Shown here piece after piece: positions 53,973 to 64,000 of a stretch of 64,000 bases of DNA (position 1 is its first letter; the number at the start of each line of letters is the position of its first letter). Source of the DNA: Gemmatimonadota bacterium (lineage in GTDB: Bacteria > 4572-55 > J002); the NCBI GenBank assembly GCA_003697105.1, contig RFFQ01000113.1, positions 1 to 64,000 on the forward strand, read 5' to 3'. Under the pieces are notes generated by a model, which made no database searches, was not told the DNA's origin, and saw nothing but the letters and a program-made list of their open reading frames with translations. The translations under genes were made by a program, and so were the position numbers.

Positions 53973-55478
53973 TTACAGTTCGTACAGCTCGCCGTATTTT
54001 GTTTTGAGATAGGTCATATACGGTTCGATGGTCATCGATTTACCGGTGACCCGTTCGATGAGTTCTGGAGCGGTGTACTTGCTACCGTGTTGGTAGATAT
54101 TTTCCTTTAACCAACCGTGGAGTATCTCAAACTGTCCCTTTTCGATCTCGGATGGAATCCCCGGATGGGCGTTGAGGGCGGCTTCAAAGAACTGTCCGCT
54201 AAGGATATTCCCCAGCGTATAGCCCGGAAATGAGCCACCGATCATCCCGTGGAACCAGTGTACATCTTGCATACAGCCATCTTTATCATGGGGTGGGGTG
54301 ATGCCCAAATCGCTGGTGTAGCGGGCATTCCACGCTTCCGGTAAATCTTTTACAGCCAGTTTGTTTTCGAGCATTTCATTGGCTAAGTCAAAGCGGATCA
54401 TGACGTGTAAGTTATAGGTGACTTCGTCGGCATCAACCCGGATTAACGAGGGTTCAACTTTGTTGATTGCCCGATAAAATTGACCGGTGTCCACATCGTG
54501 GAGTTGCTCGGGGAAAACCGCCTTCAGTTTTGGGAAAAAGTGTGTCCAAAACTCCCGACTACGTCCAACCACATTTTCCCACAGGCGAGATTGGCTTTCG
54601 TGCACGCCTGCTGAGGTTCCGCGATCCAAAGGTGTACCCTCATAGGCGGGGTTAATGCCCTGCTCGTACATGCCGTGTCCGGCTTCATGCAGGGTGCTGA
54701 ATAGGGCGTCGCTAACGTCATCTTCCCGAAAGCGGGTTGTTATGCGCACATCCCCGATGGAAAATTTGGTGCAAAAGGGGTGGTGGGTGCGATCCTGTCG
54801 CCCCCGGTTCAAATCGTAACCGTATTTTTCAATGACCATGAGTCCAAACCGTTCTTGATCCGCTTCGGGGTAGTGGCGGTGGAGGAAGTCCGTGCGGGGC
54901 GGGGGCTGTTGGCGGATGGCTTCCACCAGCGGCACCAGATGGCGACGCAATTCCGCGAACAGCGGTTGGATGGTGGCAACGGTCATGCCGTAATTCCACC
55001 GGCTAATACGGGCATCTGCCGGATGGTCCAGCTCTGGATAGAATGCGGAATGCTCGCGACTAAAATCCAATGTTTTTTCCAAATAGGGGCGGATTTTCTC
55101 AAAGTCATTTGCTGGGCGGGCTTGTGTCCATATTTGGTAGGATGTGCCGATGTGTTCGTAAAAGCGTCCCATGAAGTCCGCGGGAACTTTTGTTGCCCAT
55201 TCAAAATTGCGCCGTCCTACGCGGATGACACTCGCCTCGTCGGAGTCATAGGGGAGACTTTCTTCATACGGTTTCAGGTCATCCAGCAGTTTGCCGAGTT
55301 CATCCGCCGTTGCTTTTTCGTGAAAAATGCGTCCCAACGTGGCCGTTTGGCGGCTACGGGCGGCGGTGCCACCGGGGGGCATGTAGGTGGATTGGTCCCA
55401 ATGTAAAACGGACAGTACCCGGCTGATGTCTGTCATTTCCTGATAGTAGCGGAGCAACTGTTGATATAATTCGTGCAT
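53973..55478 (-). CDS. Carboxypeptidase M32 (Taq-like)
   Basis: WDQSTYMP, HPFC, DVRITT, LHEAGH, HESQS, IRVDADE, QDVHW; start MHELYQ with AGGAG SD. Confidence 0.95.
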   Translation of the reverse strand: MHELYQQLLRYYQEMTDISRVLSVLHWDQSTYMPPGGTAARSRQTATLGRIFHEKATADELGKLLDDLKPYEESLPYDSDEASVIRVGRRNFEWATKVPADFMGRFYEHIGTSYQIWTQARPANDFEKIRPYLEKTLDFSREHSAFYPELDHPADARISRWNYGMTVATIQPLFAELRRHLVPLVEAIRQQPPPRTDFLHRHYPEADQERFGLMVIEKYGYDLNRGRQDRTHHPFCTKFSIGDVRITTRFREDDVSDALFSTLHEAGHGMYEQGINPAYEGTPLDRGTSAGVHESQSRLWENVVGRSREFWTHFFPKLKAVFPEQLHDVDTGQFYRAINKVEPSLIRVDADEVTYNLHVMIRFDLANEMLENKLAVKDLPEAWNARYTSDLGITPPHDKDGCMQDVHWFHGMIGGSFPGYTLGNILSGQFFEAALNAHPGIPSEIEKGQFEILHGWLKENIYQHGSKYTAPELIERVTGKSMTIEPYMTYLKTKYGELYEL

Positions 55479-55506
55479 ATGTTCTCCTAATGTTGAGGTT
55501 AGGTGT

Positions 55507-56337
55507 TTATAGCTGGTGATGTTTGCTTTGCCGGGGGATGGGCAAATATTCCACACCGCCACTCTGCCGTCGCATCGGTTGGGGATAGAGCGTCATCAGG
55601 TGGAGGATATCCGCGGGCATATCGGTATTGACCGGAAGCCCAAGCGAGCGGGCTTCTTCCGCCGAGATGGGGTAATCATGTGTCCATGTACCACTGGCTA
55701 ATCGGGTGGCGAGTTCTTTCGCGGTGGTTTCGTCCATTGTTCGTCGTAAGAGGTCGGTTGTTGCCGCTTCGAGTTGCTGGATTGCTTTGCGCCCGATGTC
55801 CGCCATCATGAGGGTTTCATCTTCGACCTCGGCAACCGGTTTCTGGTCAACTACTTTCAGGAAGGAGGCGGCGGGATATTGACCCAGTTGGGGATCAATG
55901 GGTCCCAAAACAGAATGTTTACACATGACGATTTCATCCGCGGCTAAGGCAATCAGCGTGCCCCCCGACATGGCATAATGAGGGACAAAGACCGTCACTT
56001 TACCCTTGTGAGTTTGAATAGCACGGGCAATTTGCAATGAAGCCAATACCAATCCCCCCGGGGTATGCAGTACGATGTCTAGCGGAACGTCATCATCGGT
56101 CATGTGGATCGCACGCAAGACTTCCTCCGAGTCATTGATGTCGATGAAGCGCATCAACGGAAAGCCGAGTAAACTCATGGTTTCCTGCCGGTGAACGAGG
56201 AGAATAACCCGCGAGCCGCGCATCTTTTCAATTTGGGCAATCTTTCGCGTTCGCATCGCATCCAGATATCGCCGTTGTAAGGTGGGTTGTAGCGCTGAAA
56301 TGATAAAGAAAAGCCACAGAACATCTATCACACCCAT
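55507..56337 (-). CDS. SDH-family ClpP-fold serine protease
   Basis: N-terminal TM; LHTPGG, YAMSGGTLIALAADEI, LGPIDPQ, WTHDYPI. Confidence 0.9.
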   Translation of the reverse strand: MGVIDVLWLFFIISALQPTLQRRYLDAMRTRKIAQIEKMRGSRVILLVHRQETMSLLGFPLMRFIDINDSEEVLRAIHMTDDDVPLDIVLHTPGGLVLASLQIARAIQTHKGKVTVFVPHYAMSGGTLIALAADEIVMCKHSVLGPIDPQLGQYPAASFLKVVDQKPVAEVEDETLMMADIGRKAIQQLEAATTDLLRRTMDETTAKELATRLASGTWTHDYPISAEEARSLGLPVNTDMPADILHLMTLYPQPMRRQSGGVEYLPIPRQSKHHQL

Positions 56338-57092
56338 GGTGATCCTCCTGATGAGCGATAACCGTTTGGAAAAAAACCATAACGCCCTTCGTCGGCATAA
56401 AACCGGCGGTAGGTGCGTTCGGATCGTTTAATTAGCGGGGTTAATATCCAGCCGGCGAGAAATCCGCCGATATGTGCCCACCACGCAATGCCACCGGTGG
56501 TTGGAGGCAATAGTAGCGAAAACACGCCGGGGATGATCTGGGTCATAAACCAGAAGAAGGCAAAAAAGATGGCGTACACTTCCACAAAAACCGGAAAAAT
56601 AAATACCGGAATGACCATCACCAGCCGTGCCAGCGGGAACAGACGCACATAACAGCCGATGACTCCCGCAATTGCGCCGGAGGCACCTAACGCCGGAACA
56701 ACCGAATGCGCATTTAACACGGCATGAGCCAGAGATGCCGCTATCCCACATAACAGATAAAAGCAGAGAAAACGCATGGACCCAAGTCGATCTTCCACCG
56801 CGGGTGCAAAAATCCAAAGTGTCCACATGTTCAAAATCAGATGTATCCAGCTGCCATGCAAGAACATGTTGGAGAAAAACGGGAGATAGTCGAATAGGGT
56901 GTGGGGCGGTGCGACTCCCGCGAGATGCCCAAAGTAGCGCGCCGGAATCAGGGCAAATACGGCAAGAAACCGCTCCAGCACCGGTGGTGAAAGGGATGCC
57001 TGAAACATAAAAATCATCCCGTTTAGGAATATTAGCATCCACGTAATCAGGGGTGGGTAACGGGTGGCTACACCATCTTGAATCGGAAACAT
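56328..57092 (-). CDS. Rhomboid intramembrane serine protease
   Basis: MFLHGSWIHLILNM, VEDRLG, GASGAIAG, WWAHIGGF. Confidence 0.93.
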   Translation of the reverse strand: MFPIQDGVATRYPPLITWMLIFLNGMIFMFQASLSPPVLERFLAVFALIPARYFGHLAGVAPPHTLFDYLPFFSNMFLHGSWIHLILNMWTLWIFAPAVEDRLGSMRFLCFYLLCGIAASLAHAVLNAHSVVPALGASGAIAGVIGCYVRLFPLARLVMVIPVFIFPVFVEVYAIFFAFFWFMTQIIPGVFSLLLPPTTGGIAWWAHIGGFLAGWILTPLIKRSERTYRRFYADEGRYGFFPNGYRSSGGSPWV

Positions 57093-57196: not shown

Positions 57197-57327
57197 TGAT
57201 AAAACCCCATCCATTTTCCATGATTGGGCTATTGTGGATGCCTTGAAAAGGTTGTATATTGGGCGTCCACTCTAGCGAATCCATTTTGCGATCTCTATCA
57301 CAACATTTTTATGGCAAACTCGGGCTT

Positions 57328-59127
57328 ATGATTTCTCCCTATTTTCAATATAAAGATTTTATGCAACAGCATTATGGTACTCAACTTCACCGGATTCCAC
57401 TGGATATGGGTGATAGTTGTCCCAATCGCCTGCCGGATGGCTCCGGGGGGTGTACGTTTTGTAATCTGCGGGGCAGTAGAGCGATTCAAACCCTCGGTTA
57501 TGAAACGGTTTATGAGCAAGTTGATGCCGCTATCCGCTTTGCCCAGAGACGCTACCGGGCGACCCAATTTATCGCTTATATTCAGGCGTTTTCGGCGACT
57601 TTTGGGGCGAAGCGGCAACAGCAATATCTGGATTTGCTTTCCCGCTTCCCTTTTAGAGCGGTAGTCTTTGGCACCCGGCCGGATTATTTAACCCGATCCG
57701 CTTATGCTTTTTTGCAACAGCTTAATGAGTCGCTTGAAGTGTGGGTGGAGCTTGGTGTGCAGACCGTCCATGATCGCACTCTCCGGCGGATTAATCGGGG
57801 CCATGATTGGAGCGCCAGTGAACGGGCTATCCAGAAGCTACATGACACCGGTCTTCGGGTTGCCGTCCACGTGATTTTGGGGTTGCCCGGCGAAACTCCC
57901 GAAGACTTCCAATATACTGCCAATACCCTGGCGTCACTGCCGATTTCTGGGGTGAAAATCCACAATCTGCATATCGAAAAAGGTACGACTCTCGCTAAAG
58001 AACATGCGCTTACGCCGGTGCCTACCTTGATGGAATATGAATACGCCGAACATCTCATGGATTTTATCCGGCGGATGCCGCCAGACATCCCCATTATGCG
58101 TATCCATACGGACACGTTGCCGGAAGAACTCATTGCGCCCAAATGGCATATGGATACCCAACAGTTTAAGGCGTATGTAATTCGTCAAATGGTGTATCGT
58201 CAGTGGCGGCAAGGTGATTTATACCGCCATGGCTCGCCCTCTATGCCCATTGATCCTGAACCACCCGCGCCGGTCGCTACGGCGGATGGCTCCATTACCT
58301 TCTGGAGTGCCGATTATAAAGAACATTACCACGCAGCCGTCGGTGCGCGAACCGAAGCGTTGGAGAAGTTTATCCGGCCTTCTAACTTAATCGACCGATT
58401 AAAAAAAGGGGATGTCCGGTTGCTGGATGTTTGCTTCGGGTTAGGGTATAACAGTTTAATGGCGCTGGATGTGGCTCTTGCCACCAATGGTAAAGAACCG
58501 CTCCATGCGTTGGAGATTGTGGCGTTAGAAATGGATAAACGGGTGGTGCAAGCGGCGAGTCAGGCGCTTATCCCCTTAGAGACGGATTCATTTTGTTGGC
58601 AAACGGCTTTGCACGACCTTGTAACCCACGGTCACTGCACCGTAAGCCCGTCGGCTTCCATTGATATACGCTGGGGCGATGCACGTTTTACCGCTTCTCA
58701 ACTTCAACCCCATAGCATTGATATTATCTATCTGGATGCGTTTTCGACACAGCGGAACAGTGAACTCTGGACGGTTGATTTTTTCCGACAGTTACGAAAT
58801 CTGATGAAAGCGGATGGCGTTCTGATTACGTATTGCGCGGCGATTCCGGTGCGAAGCGGTCTTCTTGCCGCGGGTTTTCAGGTGGGAGAAACACCGCCGG
58901 TGGGGCGAGACCGGGGCGGAACTATCGCCGCCATCCAAGCGAACCATATTCCGCGACCTCTTCCGGCGAATGATCGTCATCTCATCGAGCACACGACCCG
59001 CGGGATTCCCTACCGCGACCCGTATGGCGTCTGGACAAATACGGAAATCTTAAGGCACCGGGAAGCGGAGATTTTAAAGTATAAGCAGGCTCGTGCATCG
59101 AACAGAATCGGGGCGGAGGTTTCATGA
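57328..59127 (+). CDS. Fusion of a TIGR01212 (YhcC/YtqA-MnmL-like) radical SAM and an MnmC-type (MnmD) tRNA methyltransferase
   Basis: N-half CPNRLPDGSGGCTFC, GTRPD, ELGVQT, INRGH, HVILGLPGE, GVKIHNL; Pro-rich linker; C-half TADGSITF...EHYH, DVCFGLGYN, YLDAFS..RNSELW, LITY, LLAAGF. Confidence 0.88.
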   Translation: MISPYFQYKDFMQQHYGTQLHRIPLDMGDSCPNRLPDGSGGCTFCNLRGSRAIQTLGYETVYEQVDAAIRFAQRRYRATQFIAYIQAFSATFGAKRQQQYLDLLSRFPFRAVVFGTRPDYLTRSAYAFLQQLNESLEVWVELGVQTVHDRTLRRINRGHDWSASERAIQKLHDTGLRVAVHVILGLPGETPEDFQYTANTLASLPISGVKIHNLHIEKGTTLAKEHALTPVPTLMEYEYAEHLMDFIRRMPPDIPIMRIHTDTLPEELIAPKWHMDTQQFKAYVIRQMVYRQWRQGDLYRHGSPSMPIDPEPPAPVATADGSITFWSADYKEHYHAAVGARTEALEKFIRPSNLIDRLKKGDVRLLDVCFGLGYNSLMALDVALATNGKEPLHALEIVALEMDKRVVQAASQALIPLETDSFCWQTALHDLVTHGHCTVSPSASIDIRWGDARFTASQLQPHSIDIIYLDAFSTQRNSELWTVDFFRQLRNLMKADGVLITYCAAIPVRSGLLAAGFQVGETPPVGRDRGGTIAAIQANHIPRPLPANDRHLIEHTTRGIPYRDPYGVWTNTEILRHREAEILKYKQARASNRIGAEVS

Positions 59128-60089
59128 CAACGGCGACCTCATTTTGGATTGTGGCCCCCCAAACCGGCCAATTTCGCTCAGAATCGTTGCCCCCTTTAGC
59201 CCCAAATGAGGTGGGTGTACGCACCCTATATAGCGGGATTAGTCGCGGTACCGAACGGTTGGTTTTTAAGGGCGATGTACCGGTTTCCCAATATCCGGTT
59301 ATGCGGGCACCATTTATGGCAGGAGAATTTCCTTTTCCGGTTAAGTACGGCTATTGTAACGTGGGAGTGGTAGTGGAAGGTGTCCCAGCATGGCAGGGAG
59401 CACGGGTATTTAGCTTGTTTCCACATCAGGATTATTTTCATCTTCGCACAGATGATCTGCTGCGTATCCCGGAGACGGTACCCTCCGAGCGAGCCGTTTT
59501 GGCGGCAAATATGGAGACTGCACTAAACAGCATTTGGGATAGCGACCTGCGGATTGGCGACCGGGTTGCCGTCATCGGTGCCGGGGTGGTGGGGTGCTTA
59601 ATTGCCTATCTTGCCGCCCAAATTCCAGCGGTCAATGTGACCCTGATCGATACATATCCGCCACGGCAGACCATTGCCGATCACTTGAACATCCCATTTC
59701 AAACACCGGATCAGGTGCAGAGCGAGTTTGACCGAATTTTTCACGCCAGCGGCCATCCGGCAGGGTTACAAACGGCGTTACAGTGGGCGGCACCAGAAGC
59801 GCAAATTATCGAAGCGAGTTGGTTTGGAGATACAGAAGTGTGTTTACCCCTTGGGGAGGCATTTCACTCCCGGCGGTTGCAGGTTATTGGTTCGCAAGTG
59901 GGATCGGTTGCCATCTCTCGCCGGACACGATATACTTCCCGGCAACGCTTGGCATTAGCACTCTCACTTCTCGCGGATGACCGGCTGGACGCGTTGTTCA
60001 CGGATCGTATTGCCTTTGCGGATTTACCGGAGCAGTATCCCCGCTTGTTGAATGCCGCGTCCGTACTGGGCATCATTGTGAAATATTAG
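59124..60089 (+). CDS. MDR-family (zinc-binding-type) alcohol dehydrogenase
   Basis: SGISRGTE, FPVKYGY, PHQ, ANMETALN, GAGVVG, LGEAFHSRRL...SQV; ATGA overlap with the upstream gene. Confidence 0.87.
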   Translation: MTTATSFWIVAPQTGQFRSESLPPLAPNEVGVRTLYSGISRGTERLVFKGDVPVSQYPVMRAPFMAGEFPFPVKYGYCNVGVVVEGVPAWQGARVFSLFPHQDYFHLRTDDLLRIPETVPSERAVLAANMETALNSIWDSDLRIGDRVAVIGAGVVGCLIAYLAAQIPAVNVTLIDTYPPRQTIADHLNIPFQTPDQVQSEFDRIFHASGHPAGLQTALQWAAPEAQIIEASWFGDTEVCLPLGEAFHSRRLQVIGSQVGSVAISRRTRYTSRQRLALALSLLADDRLDALFTDRIAFADLPEQYPRLLNAASVLGIIVKY

Positions 60090-60142: not shown

Positions 60143-63100
60143 ATGGATATATCAAAGCAGATCGAACAGTGGCAACACCAGCCGGGGATAGAAACGGCAG
60201 TTGGCTTATTGGAAGCAATGGAAACAACGCCGGTGCAAGTTGAACTTGCTCCCAGTTGCCTTCGGCTTACCGGTAAAAGTGATTTTTTACGAAACCTGCC
60301 GCAATATGAGTTACGGTTGCGTTGGGCACAAACGGCTTTACGCTGGATTCGAGAAACTCCGTTTAAATTGGTCGATTTATTCACAATGCGGGTAAAAGAA
60401 TACCCAAACCGGGTATTGTTTCAGGAGATGCGCGGTACGATGCCGCACTACTGGACGTATCGCCAAGTTGATCGGATGGTGAAGGAGATTGCCACAGCGT
60501 TCTATACGGTTGTACCGGCGTCTCCGCGGGTCGCGATTTTTGCGGAAAACTGTCTTGGTGGGGCATGTGCAGACCTCGCCTGCCTGTTTTATGATATTTT
60601 AGATACACCGCTCAATATTCATTTTGATGATGAGACCTTGCTCGATATTTTGGATCGGTTGCAGATTAACATTGTGGTGACCGATACAGAGAGCCGTTGC
60701 CGCCGCTTGGAGAATCTCCGGCGAAAGACTGCCCGTCCTTTTGTAGTATTCGTTGTTCAACGGCAGATCAAGCTTCATGAAAATGATACCTATTTTTTGG
60801 ACGAATATTGTAAGCATTTAAGCCAGGAGCAGATCGACACCCAGCTGGCAAACCGTCCCCGCCGGGATTTGCGCGATGTTGCGACCGTGATGTTCACTTC
60901 GGGAAGTACCGGTAAACCCAAAGGGATTGCCTTTTCGGAGTACCACTTGGTCAGCAAACGTTTTTGTCGTGCCGCGGCTTTGCCCAAAGTGGGGGATAAC
61001 GAGGTGTTACTCTGCTATTTACCGCTTTTCCATACGTTTGGGCGATATTTGGAAATGCTGGGCACGATCTATTGGGGGGGTACGTATGTTTTTACCACGA
61101 ATACTTCTGCTGAGAATCTGCTCTCCTTGTTCCCGCAGGTCAACCCAACCGGGTTTATCAGTGTGCCGATCCGGTGGGTCCAGTTATACGAAAAATGTTT
61201 GAAAAAGATAAAACATGAAACCGATTTGCAGGCGGTACAACTAGCCGTTCGTTCCGTGATCGGACACCGGTTGCGGTGGGGGCTTTCCGCCGCGGGGTAT
61301 CTTGACCCCAAAATCTTCCGTTTTTTCCAGCGGAATGGCGTGGATTTATGTAGCGGGTTTGGTATGACGGAAGCCACCGGCGGCATTACCATGACACCGC
61401 CCGGTAATTATGTGGAAAATGCCGTGGGGATTGCCTTACCGGGTATCGATATCCGGTTAACGGATAACGGCGAAATGCAGATCAGTGGGCATTACATCGC
61501 CCGGTATTTAGATGATTTGCCGAGTGCCAGTGCCGCGATCCCCTATCCAGAGGAGGAGGTGTACTGGCTCTCGACCGGTGATCTGTTTCAAGTGACCCCC
61601 GAAGGTTTTTACCAGATTATTGACCGCACAAAAGATATTTACAAAAATAACAAAGGGCAAACGGTCGCTCCGGTCAAAATGGAGAAAAAATTTACCGGAG
61701 TCCCGGGAATTAAACGGACCTTTTTAGTCGGGGATGGCAAACCGTACAATGTCCTCTTCATTGTACCGGACGAAACAAGCGACTTCATGCAGAAATTTCG
61801 CACGGAAGAGAGCCGCCGAGAGTATTTTCAACAATTGATTACCACCGCGAATCAAAAATTGGCGCCGTATGAACGGGTAATCAATTTTGCCATTTTAGAC
61901 CGGGATTTTGATCTCAAACGGGGGGAACTGACCCCCAAAGGTTCGTTCAATCGCAAAATCATCGTGGCGCATTTTAGCCACTTAATCGATGAACTTTATC
62001 AGCGTGAATATGTAGAATTGGCGTGCGATGAGGTCTGTGTGCGGATTCCACGCTGGTTTTTCCGGGATCAAGGTATGTTAGAAGGGAGTATCTCCATCTC
62101 TCGCATGGGGTTGCACAATTTGACGACCGGTAAAATGTTACCTTTAAAACGGGTGGCGGAGTCGGGTACAACTCTTATTGGGGATTTAGAATATACGGTC
62201 ACGAATGGCGTCATTGACTTAGGGCTATTTTCCCGCCAACCCCGCCTCTGGGTCGGAAATCCGGCACTGATCGCATTTTGCATCTGTAAAGAGGGCTGGG
62301 ATGTACCGCTGGATGGGGTTTCGGCGCACCTTTTTCGTCCGTGGGAGATTGCCCGGCAATATGACCCAACGGAGTTACCAGTACCGCAAAAAGTGCGGGA
62401 TGCCGAGTTGCTTCGCATCAATCGGCTGGTCTGTACGGCAATTTTGGGTCCTACGGAACTGGCGTATTCAGCGTTGGAAGAACTTAGTACGGCGTTAACA
62501 GAGGTTGATAGCCGTTTAGGTGATGTCATCCGCCGCCGGTTGGAAACCTTAGCCCGCCACCCAGACGAAGATATCCGCTGTTTCGCGTATCAAATTTTGT
62601 TACTCGATGAGCCGGTCTCCAATTACAACCTAGCTTTTCCGGCATTTATGCAATCTGGCTTATCTTTTCTCAATAAAAAATCGATAGAAAATATTGCCTT
62701 TGGTAAGATGGAAAAAAAGCGGCTGGAAGCGCTTCGCCAGCGGCTGTTTAGTTACCGGATGCAACTAAATTGGCCCCTCAATGAGAGCATGCGCCAACAG
62801 TTTGAGCGCATCTTCCAACTGCTGGTCAGTTTTGTGGACCAACATCCGGAATTTTACCATCCCTTGCGGGCAGAACTGGCAAGTTGGGTTCTCCACCGCA
62901 ACGACCGGGCTTTGGCTGAGATTGCAGAACGGTATTTTAATGAATTGTATCAGGTTTATCAGAGCAAGTTTGAGGGCGACCTCGATACTTACCAGCAGGC
63001 AGATTGGGACGAAAAAATTGTATTTGATGATGGTTTGGTGGCGGATGAAATTCAGCGCATAAAAGCCGTTTTCCGGGCGGCGCCGTTCCTCAAACATTCC

Positions 63101-64000
63101 GTGATGCTCGCATTTGATGAACGCCAATTTCATCTGGCAGATGTCCCGCCGGGTGGAATTTGGGTCTCGCGGGTAGAATCGGGACATTATCGTGACCAAT
63201 ACCGGGTCTGTATTAATACCATCCATGACGCCCATTTTGATCTACAACTCGTACTCAGCGACGACCTCGATCAAGCGATGACCAAAGAATCCGTTTACTG
63301 GCATGTGGCGATCAGCGGGTATCCTTACGGGCAATCGGTGTTACCGCGAATGGGGTGTTTTGATACCGGAAGTGGCGCTTTGGCAACACGTTATACCGGC
63401 GAACTGAGCGTGTGGGAGAAAATCCGCGAGTTTTCCAGTGCTCGTATCCCCGGCAAGACGTTTCCGGGACTCAATGCGTGGCGAAAGTTGTTTATTCAAG
63501 CCTTAGCCGGATTTTATCGCGGCTGGCACAATAGCGGCTTTCAGATTGTGCCGGGCGTCATCTCGCCCAATAACATTGCCGTACCGGAACTCGATTTTTT
63601 GGAAAGTTCCACGATCTTGTCCATGATCGGCTGGCAAGAGTACACCAACACGCTTTCCCTCATTAAACCGATGCTGCAAAACTTCTACTTCAAGACGGTC
63701 GCTCACTATCCCTGGTGCAAAGATGATTTGCATGTGGATTGGATATTTGATGCCTGCCAAGAAGCGTTAGGACGGGAGCCGGCGCAGGAATTTTTCGCCC
63801 AACTCCAGACGGAACTCAGCGGGGAACGGCTGGTATGGCTGGATGGTACGCCATTGGGACAATGCCTAGAGCGGTATCTCAAGGATAACGAGGATTTCTA
63901 TTACCTGCCCCTTGCCGTCCGCAAAGCCATTGAGTGGTACAAAACGTGGGAAAAAACGAATGAGGCAATTCACTCCACTGCCCGGAAAGAAGTGGTGTTG
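60143..64000 (+). CDS. Large multidomain protein, 3'-truncated (at least 1286 aa): long-chain acyl-CoA synthetase-like domain plus uncharacterised and kinase-like regions
   Basis: Translated by hand with no stop to the window end; [47 protein letters not shown]. Absent from the track, presumably because it has no stop. Confidence 0.88.
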   Translation, partial: MDISKQIEQWQHQPGIETAVGLLEAMETTPVQVELAPSCLRLTGKSDFLRNLPQYELRLRWAQTALRWIRETPFKLVDLFTMRVKEYPNRVLFQEMRGTMPHYWTYRQVDRMVKEIATAFYTVVPASPRVAIFAENCLGGACADLACLFYDILDTPLNIHFDDETLLDILDRLQINIVVTDTESRCRRLENLRRKTARPFVVFVVQRQIKLHENDTYFLDEYCKHLSQEQIDTQLANRPRRDLRDVATVMFTSGSTGKPKGIAFSEYHLVSKRFCRAAALPKVGDNEVLLCYLPLFHTFGRYLEMLGTIYWGGTYVFTTNTSAENLLSLFPQVNPTGFISVPIRWVQLYEKCLKKIKHETDLQAVQLAVRSVIGHRLRWGLSAAGYLDPKIFRFFQRNGVDLCSGFGMTEATGGITMTPPGNYVENAVGIALPGIDIRLTDNGEMQISGHYIARYLDDLPSASAAIPYPEEEVYWLSTGDLFQVTPEGFYQIIDRTKDIYKNNKGQTVAPVKMEKKFTGVPGIKRTFLVGDGKPYNVLFIVPDETSDFMQKFRTEESRREYFQQLITTANQKLAPYERVINFAILDRDFDLKRGELTPKGSFNRKIIVAHFSHLIDELYQREYVELACDEVCVRIPRWFFRDQGMLEGSISISRMGLHNLTTGKMLPLKRVAESGTTLIGDLEYTVTNGVIDLGLFSRQPRLWVGNPALIAFCICKEGWDVPLDGVSAHLFRPWEIARQYDPTELPVPQKVRDAELLRINRLVCTAILGPTELAYSALEELSTALTEVDSRLGDVIRRRLETLARHPDEDIRCFAYQILLLDEPVSNYNLAFPAFMQSGLSFLNKKSIENIAFGKMEKKRLEALRQRLFSYRMQLNWPLNESMRQQFERIFQLLVSFVDQHPEFYHPLRAELASWVLHRNDRALAEIAERYFNELYQVYQSKFEGDLDTYQQADWDEKIVFDDGLVADEIQRIKAVFRAAPFLKHSVMLAFDERQFHLADVPPGGIWVSRVESGHYRDQYRVCINTIHDAHFDLQLVLSDDLDQAMTKESVYWHVAISGYPYGQSVLPRMGCFDTGSGALATRYTGELSVWEKIREFSSARIPGKTFPGLNAWRKLFIQALAGFYRGWHNSGFQIVPGVISPNNIAVPELDFLESSTILSMIGWQEYTNTLSLIKPMLQNFYFKTVAHYPWCKDDLHVDWIFDACQEALGREPAQEFFAQLQTELSGERLVWLDGTPLGQCLERYLKDNEDFYYLPLAVRKAIEWYKTWEKTNEAIHSTARKEVVL

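Follow-up and report, generated by a model that had tools for sequence, protein, structure and literature searches.

A single gene joining an MnmL-type radical SAM domain to an MnmC2-type methyltransferase in a Gemmatimonadota genome, and its predicted part in mnm5(s2)U34 synthesis

A stretch of 64,000 nucleotides from a Gemmatimonadota bacterium (assembly GCA_003697105.1, contig RFFQ01000113.1, positions 1 to 64,000; hereafter the window) was found to carry, at 57328..59127 (+), one gene of 599 codons and a stop, in which an MnmL (YtqA)-type radical S-adenosylmethionine (SAM) domain is joined to an MnmC2 methyltransferase. That this is one real gene is confirmed by the evidence given below. 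The encoded protein is very probably a bifunctional tRNA wobble-uridine enzyme, predicted to carry out the last two steps in the synthesis of 5-methylaminomethyl-(2-thio)uridine at position 34 (mnm5(s2)U34). Architecture, motifs, fold, family-wide conservation and pathway context were established for this gene; the activity is predicted from homology. Both the fusion and its interpretation are already in print, the reading being right and not new.

The fused gene and its two domains

The open reading frame (ORF) extends over 57259..59127 (+) with no internal stop; translation from TTG at 57259 gives 622 residues and translation from ATG at 57328 gives 599. The ATG is the likely start, since the alignment to TIGR01212 begins at residue 5 (model position 2) and that to the orthologues at residue 1. 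Matches to Radical_SAM and Methyltransf_30 were present together in one protein in 120 of the 120 best homologues (49–74% identical, from several sources), and Radical_SAM_C was matched as well in 119 of them; loci encoding relatives (13 in genomes, 4 in metagenomes) read through the junction wherever they reach it. Among the Logan assemblies, run X1 covered the gene by one contig (57300-59200) and run X2 by one contig that includes the junction (57300-58588); compared with the window, these contained no indel and no stop, the sole difference being a synonymous T>C at 57723. X1 and X2 are possibly the source runs of this DNA and are counted as independent assemblies, not as independent samples; run X3 gave just two short pieces (198 and 157 bases). 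The comparative evidence for a real fusion is stronger than that from the Logan contigs.

The N-terminal half (residues 1–299; 57328..58224) was assigned to the MnmL/YtqA type by profile, identity and fold. NCBIfam TIGR01212 ('tRNA modification radical SAM protein MnmL/YtqA') scored 226.1 bits against a curated equivalog cutoff of 180, residues 5–299 being aligned to model positions 2–300 of 302 (228.5 bits in the genome-wide search); Pfam Radical_SAM covered residues 40–200 (E 9.2e-17) and Radical_SAM_C (PF16199) residues 206–288 (E 2.6e-18). E. coli YhcC was 34% identical to this half over 266 residues (E 2e-48), and Foldseek matched it to the Elp3 structures 6QK7, 8PTX, 6IA8 and 5L7L (E 1e-8 to 1e-12). 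The [4Fe-4S] cluster motif C31-x10-C42-x2-C45 (57418..57462), seen in the translation and in the family alignment, aligns with C33, C45 and C48 of YhcC; the spacing is C-x10-C-x2-C in the fusion family versus C-x11-C-x2-C in E. coli YhcC.

Conservation was followed in 22 family members and in a library clustered at 50% identity, from which the best 150 representatives were taken. Both halves were matched by 58 of these 150, in 43 cases over most of the length, and the radical SAM half came first in all 43. The three cluster cysteines were invariant in 22/22 family members and in 55/55 stand-alone MnmL-like representatives, and were kept in 41 of 43 distant fusions, the other two having gaps.

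The C-terminal half (residues 316–564; 58273..59019) is a predicted SAM-dependent methyltransferase of the Aquifex MnmC2 type, the expected substrate being 5-aminomethyl-2-thiouridine (nm5s2U). The best solved relative was A. aeolicus MnmC2 (3VYW), aligned over residues 316–564 (E 8.8e-31); Pfam Methyltransf_30 (PF05430) matched residues 442–535 (E 4.8e-25; 88.3 bits against a threshold of 22); Foldseek returned 3VYW (E 7.4e-21, TMt 0.72–0.73), 2QY6 (TMt 0.73) and also 3PS9. The SAM-binding motif LDVCFGLGYN (residues 366–375; 58423..58452), the motif GDAR and the motif DAFS (D470 to S473; 58735..58746) align with LDVGFGLGYN, GDAR and DAFS of 3VYW, and DAFS aligns with DGFA of E. coli MnmC; we take the three to be functional (SAM-binding or catalytic) motifs of MnmC2. 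L366, D367 and C369–N375 were invariant in 22/22 family members, as were GDAR and DAFS, and G371 was kept in 43/43 distant fusions. The domain is followed by a conserved C-terminal tail with a long helix (residues 565–599; 59020..59124), in which all family members share P565, I574, R576 and R578, and residues 571–598 are helical in the model.

The AlphaFold2 model, built on the 22 family sequences, had a mean predicted local distance difference test score (pLDDT) of 88.1 and a predicted template modelling score (pTM) of 0.87. Its only low-confidence block (pLDDT 52, residues 301–310) lies in the Pro-rich interdomain linker (residues 300–315; 58225..58272), which has 6 prolines within residues 297–320 and differs in length among the orthologues.

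Most of what a preliminary description of this DNA had read from the letters was thus borne out. It had put a C-x10-C-x2-C radical SAM domain of the TIGR01212 type, a Pro-rich linker at about 58230-58275 and a methyltransferase into one ORF; the ORF stands by translation, profile hidden Markov models and Logan contigs, the radical SAM domain by the TIGR01212 score and the motif in the translation, and the linker by prolines, pLDDT and length variation. The profile scan proposed there placed TIGR01212 above its cutoff and Methyltransf_30 above the Pfam threshold, and no stop was seen between the domains in the X1 and X2 contigs across the junction. Its methyltransferase of the MnmC type has to be corrected in one detail: the domain is borne out by Methyltransf_30 and 3VYW, but its type is that of stand-alone Aquifex MnmC2, not close to the N-terminal domain of E. 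coli MnmC.

Membership in the bifunctional MnmC family was considered and rejected, the protein having no flavin adenine dinucleotide (FAD) oxidase domain. The full-length MnmC models NF002480 and NF002481 scored 79.9 bits (cutoff 540) and 54.8 bits (cutoff 600), and these matches were limited to the methyltransferase part. One orthologue bears the NCBI name 'bifunctional protein MnmC', which would be apt as to function but is by family a misnomer.

Predicted function and the alternatives

The window's genome (4.18 Mb, 96.85% complete) encodes MnmE (442 bits), MnmG (922 bits) and MnmA (363 bits), all above cutoff. Genome-wide, the best match to the MnmC1 oxidase (TIGR03197) reached 32.9 bits against a cutoff of 174.2 and was confined to the first 53 model positions, the dinucleotide-binding N-terminus; MnmM (PF06962) had no match in this genome, and beyond the fusion ORF it held neither a second MnmL above cutoff nor a second MnmC2 match. 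MnmC1 above cutoff was likewise found in 0/4 other fusion-bearing genomes. The tRNA anticodons encoded include those of the usual substrates (Glu-UUC, Lys-UUU, Gln-UUG, Arg-UCU, Gly-UCC and Leu-UAA). This is the composition of the published MnmL(YtqA)-MnmC2 class: both domains in one ORF, MnmA, MnmE and MnmG present, MnmC1 and MnmM not found.

The following route is proposed. The gene content suggests that MnmE-MnmG, MnmA supplying the 2-thio group, would first give 5-carboxymethylaminomethyl-(2-thio)uridine (cmnm5(s2)U34) in tRNAs like Glu-UUC, Lys-UUU and Gln-UUG. By homology, the MnmL domain would then strip the carboxymethyl group through radical SAM chemistry, FAD and O2 being unneeded, to give nm5(s2)U34. 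Finally, the C-terminal domain, a homologue of A. aeolicus MnmC2 and of the MnmC2 domain of E. coli, would methylate the amine with a second SAM to give mnm5(s2)U34.

The same sequence of reactions has been described for E. coli (10.64898/2026.05.18.725915). There YhcC is MnmL, is required anaerobically and converts cmnm5s2U-tRNA into nm5s2U-tRNA in vitro; MnmC1 needs O2, and the MnmC2 domain methylates the YhcC product and is required for this anaerobically. The pairing of MnmL with MnmC2 is experimentally supported, as two separate proteins. The earlier suggestion that the radical SAM domain stands here in place of the oxidase is supported by the genome context together with the literature on YhcC (MnmL) and MnmC2, and the possible oxygen-independence of the route by the anaerobic supply of nm5s2U by YhcC and the O2 requirement of MnmC1 (10.64898/2026.05.18.725915); the genome check turned out as had been predicted, with mnmE and mnmG present and neither the mnmC oxidase nor mnmM found, and MnmA was present too.

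Several observations weigh against the bifunctional assignment. Two residues at the putative tRNA cleft of YhcC, K21 and R279, were flagged as highly conserved basic residues (10.64898/2026.05.18.725915); they align with Q19 and T277 of the fusion protein, neither of which is basic. Position 277 is K in 43/43 distant fusion representatives and K/R in 46/55 stand-alone ones, and the only deviating rows in the family alignment are this protein (T) and P0002 (N). T277 is a lineage-specific substitution. It is regarded, with Q19, as a caveat and not as a refutation, because the role of the cleft residues is the hypothesis of that preprint; in its available text a C33A yhcC mutant was used, tRNA binding by K21 and R279 is given as a hypothesis only, and a mutant test of these two was not found. 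Basicity at these positions is no formal criterion of the TIGR01212 family.

The NCBIfam MnmC2 model (NF033855) scored 109.6 bits, below its cutoff of 136 (residues 327–530; model positions 3–202 of 209). The order of Pontiellaceae bacterium B1224 (Kiritimatiellales-type) was sampled through 61 genomes, and this cutoff was exceeded in none of the 61, despite an MnmC2 match in 57 of them (54 in open frames of 525–734 aa). The window's genome also contains two matches to the COX1 family of heme-copper oxidases (C183:15092-16420 and C184:1257-2546; 509 and 397 bits), one of which could be a nitric-oxide reductase; cytochrome bd had no match in this 96.85%-complete genome. Given the two COX1-family matches, strict anaerobiosis is not obvious for this organism, and so an oxygen-independent route is not obviously 'needed'. 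Finally, no assay of any natural MnmL-MnmC2 fusion was found in the literature searched, as far as its text was available, and 10.1101/2023.12.21.572861 describes the MnmL/MnmC2 route as 'predicted from the fusions' and its predictions as ones that 'await experimental validation'.

The cleft residues could be taken to mean that only the methyltransferase half acts. The ammonium route of MnmEG would then lead straight to nm5s2U, as has been put forward for Aquifex aeolicus, and the radical SAM half would be otherwise employed or impaired. Such an arrangement would agree with the stand-alone Aquifex type of the MnmC2 half, with the report that the demodification step is unneeded in Aquifex (10.1101/2023.12.21.572861), and with T277 in place of a near-universal lysine and a non-basic Q19. 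It is nevertheless quite improbable: the cluster cysteines and other family-invariant residues are all intact, the TIGR01212 score exceeds the equivalog cutoff, a whole order has retained the fusion, its radical SAM half intact, and the 'ammonium route' signal observed in vivo in E. coli has been ascribed to YhcC (10.64898/2026.05.18.725915).

The NF033855 scores, below cutoff here and in 0/61 sampled Kiritimatiellales-type genomes above it, raise the opposite case of a degenerate methyltransferase half serving as a mere tRNA-binding module, with nm5s2U as the end product. This is held to be very improbable, in view of the invariance of LDVCFGLGYN, GDAR and DAFS in 22/22 family members, their alignment to the motifs of the solved A. 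aeolicus MnmC2, the match of the fold to 3VYW at the TMt given above, and the wide margin by which the Pfam threshold was passed. An assembly or frameshift artefact merging two neighbouring genes has no direct support, the Pro-rich, low-complexity linker being a place where such an error could hide, and its chance is next to nil: it is effectively refuted already by the indel-free X1 and X2 assemblies across the junction (the samples maybe being the same), by the single-protein architecture of 120/120 best homologues from several independent sources, and by the read-through in those genome and metagenome loci that reach the junction.

Distribution, relationships and neighbouring genes

The closest relative of the fusion protein was P0002 (74% identity), and it was 57–64% identical to the copies of Pontiella and other Kiritimatiellales. 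The housekeeping protein MnmG was 50–55% identical to that of those Kiritimatiellales genomes and 52–53% identical to that of the phylum-mates; its best named relatives belonged to Poribacteria, Nitrospirota/Thermodesulfovibrionales, a deltaproteobacterium and unclassified bacteria, and the named entries within the 120 best MnmG matches included no Kiritimatiellota or Verrucomicrobiota. The GTDB phylum of the window's genome was represented by 3 species in the genome set, the other two being without the fusion. One of them (G001) has a stand-alone MnmL of 307 aa (307 bits with TIGR01212; 31% identical to the N-terminal domain of the fusion) and no MnmC2 match; in the other (G002) neither MnmL nor MnmC2 was found. 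The MnmL gene of G001 (contig C56, 313-1236, +) lies tail to tail with an ORF of 466 aa (1245-2645, −) that, judged by eye from its translation, resembles an RNA uracil methyltransferase of the TRAM/RumA type.

A quick maximum-likelihood tree (34 rows) paired P0002 and the fusion protein of the window with support of 100; the pair stood inside a clade of 27 rows with the Pontiella group (SH-aLRT 88), itself inside a starred clade of 29 rows that includes a Lentisphaerota copy. The two outgroups had very long branches (8.5 and 10), which makes the root unsure. Local GC content showed no anomaly at the fusion gene. On balance, horizontal acquisition from a Kiritimatiellales-like lineage is mildly favoured, because the fusion nests among Kiritimatiellota and Lentisphaerota copies, the phylum-mates are without it, and the relationships of MnmG differ.

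A wider conjecture, which as a whole must be called unlikely, joins this transfer to a mechanism. A Kiritimatiellales-like donor would have passed the gene to a small phylum having a stand-alone MnmL or nothing; the fused domains would be packed in a fixed arrangement and share one tRNA surface, U34 being handed on without release of the tRNA, and the coupled dehydrogenase described below would be a lineage-specific add-on. Channelling between the sites is an idea suggested by the pTM of the model (0.87); a shared tRNA surface with channelling, if true, would explain how a cleft lysine that is universal elsewhere could be lost (K277 to T).

Most orthologues are named in public records just 'TIGR01212 family radical SAM protein', and the methyltransferase half is systematically under-annotated there; the NCBIfam MnmC2 cutoff misses this half clade-wide, so that public annotation names the radical SAM part only. 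A different arrangement was seen in three library proteins (P0155, P0212 and P0223), in which the MnmL-like domain is C-terminal, behind about 200–230 residues unmatched to the MnmC2 half. This N-terminal part may be a different fusion partner, e.g. MnmM; MnmM fusions are reported in 10.1101/2023.12.21.572861.

Downstream of the fusion gene, a dehydrogenase of the MDR type (321 aa; zinc alcohol-dehydrogenase-like, weakly BchC-like by Pfam and NCBIfam) is encoded at 59124-60089 (+). Its ATG overlaps the TGA of the fusion (ATGA) and is preceded by GGAGG 5 nt upstream; the dehydrogenase is translationally coupled to the fusion in this genome. Cluster look-up gave only the generic 'zinc-dependent alcohol dehydrogenase-like', and no second copy was present in the window's genome. 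It is followed by an AMP-binding (acyl-CoA synthetase-like) ORF of >1285 aa (60143-64000, +) running past the window end, with the AMP-binding module at residues 82–622 and then >660 residues without a Pfam match. Upstream of the fusion, on the opposite strand (53973-57092, −), lie genes for an M32 (Taq-type) carboxypeptidase, an SDH/ClpP-like serine protease and a rhomboid protease, the last two ORFs overlapping by 10 bases (56328-56337). None of these five neighbours was found at the 13 genome and 4 metagenome loci of relatives, a set of 17 that leaves out the contig of P0002. A functional link between fusion and dehydrogenase was rejected, the latter being absent from 17/17 related loci, and the coupling is for that reason treated as incidental. 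A promoter scan gave 2 sigma-70-like sites (4.2 expected), none of them upstream of the fusion gene, and terminator-like sites did not exceed chance level.

Comparison with known systems

A bioRxiv preprint, 'Alternate routes to mnm5s2U synthesis in Gram-positive bacteria' (10.1101/2023.12.21.572861), presents fusions of this kind, namely 3 YtqA/MnmC2 fusions in COG genomes and a further 70 in InterPro; together with the clustering of ytqA and mnmM, they served there to identify MnmL. The main text of that preprint, as available, does not name Verrucomicrobia, Lentisphaerae, Kiritimatiellae, Spirochaetes or Planctomycetes. As a 'Rosetta stone' for the making of mnm5s2U without oxygen, the fusion is a textbook case whose lesson has already been published. 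To this may be added that the fused gene occurs beyond Kiritimatiellota and Lentisphaerota too, probably by transfer, and that, in a genome which also encodes heme-copper oxidases, this gene alone is a candidate for the demodification. A natural fused enzyme would moreover allow the biochemistry of the two steps to be studied conveniently in one protein.

B. subtilis MnmL (YtqA) and MnmM (YtqB) resemble the present protein in that a radical SAM protein of the TIGR01212 family performs the demodification; methylation in that system falls to the unrelated MnmM (PF06962), a protein not found in this genome. Aquifex aeolicus MnmC2 (3VYW) has the motifs LDVxFGLGYN, GDAR and DAFS in common with the C-terminal half; it is stand-alone and reported to use nm5s2U made directly by MnmEG (10.1101/2023.12.21.572861), whereas here the methyltransferase is fused behind MnmL. 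With E. coli YhcC and MnmC2 the fusion shares a predicted radical SAM demodification followed by MnmC2 methylation, and the cysteine aligned to C33 is kept; E. coli employs two proteins and has the O2-dependent MnmC1 besides, whereas here a single polypeptide is encoded and MnmC1 was not found. E. coli MnmC (3AWI, 3PS9) is likewise one protein for both final steps, as is predicted here, and its methyltransferase is homologous (30% over 107 residues); its demodifying part, however, is a C-terminal, O2-dependent FAD oxidase, in contrast to the N-terminal radical SAM domain of the fusion, so that the domain order is reversed. The published YtqA(MnmL)/MnmC2 fusions stand closest, since they combine both domains in a single protein, occur in genomes that encode MnmA, MnmG and MnmE, and share the predicted conversion of cmnm5s2U into nm5s2U and then mnm5s2U (10.1101/2023.12.21.572861); from these the gene of the window shows no difference in kind, and its copy is set apart by T277 in place of the family lysine.

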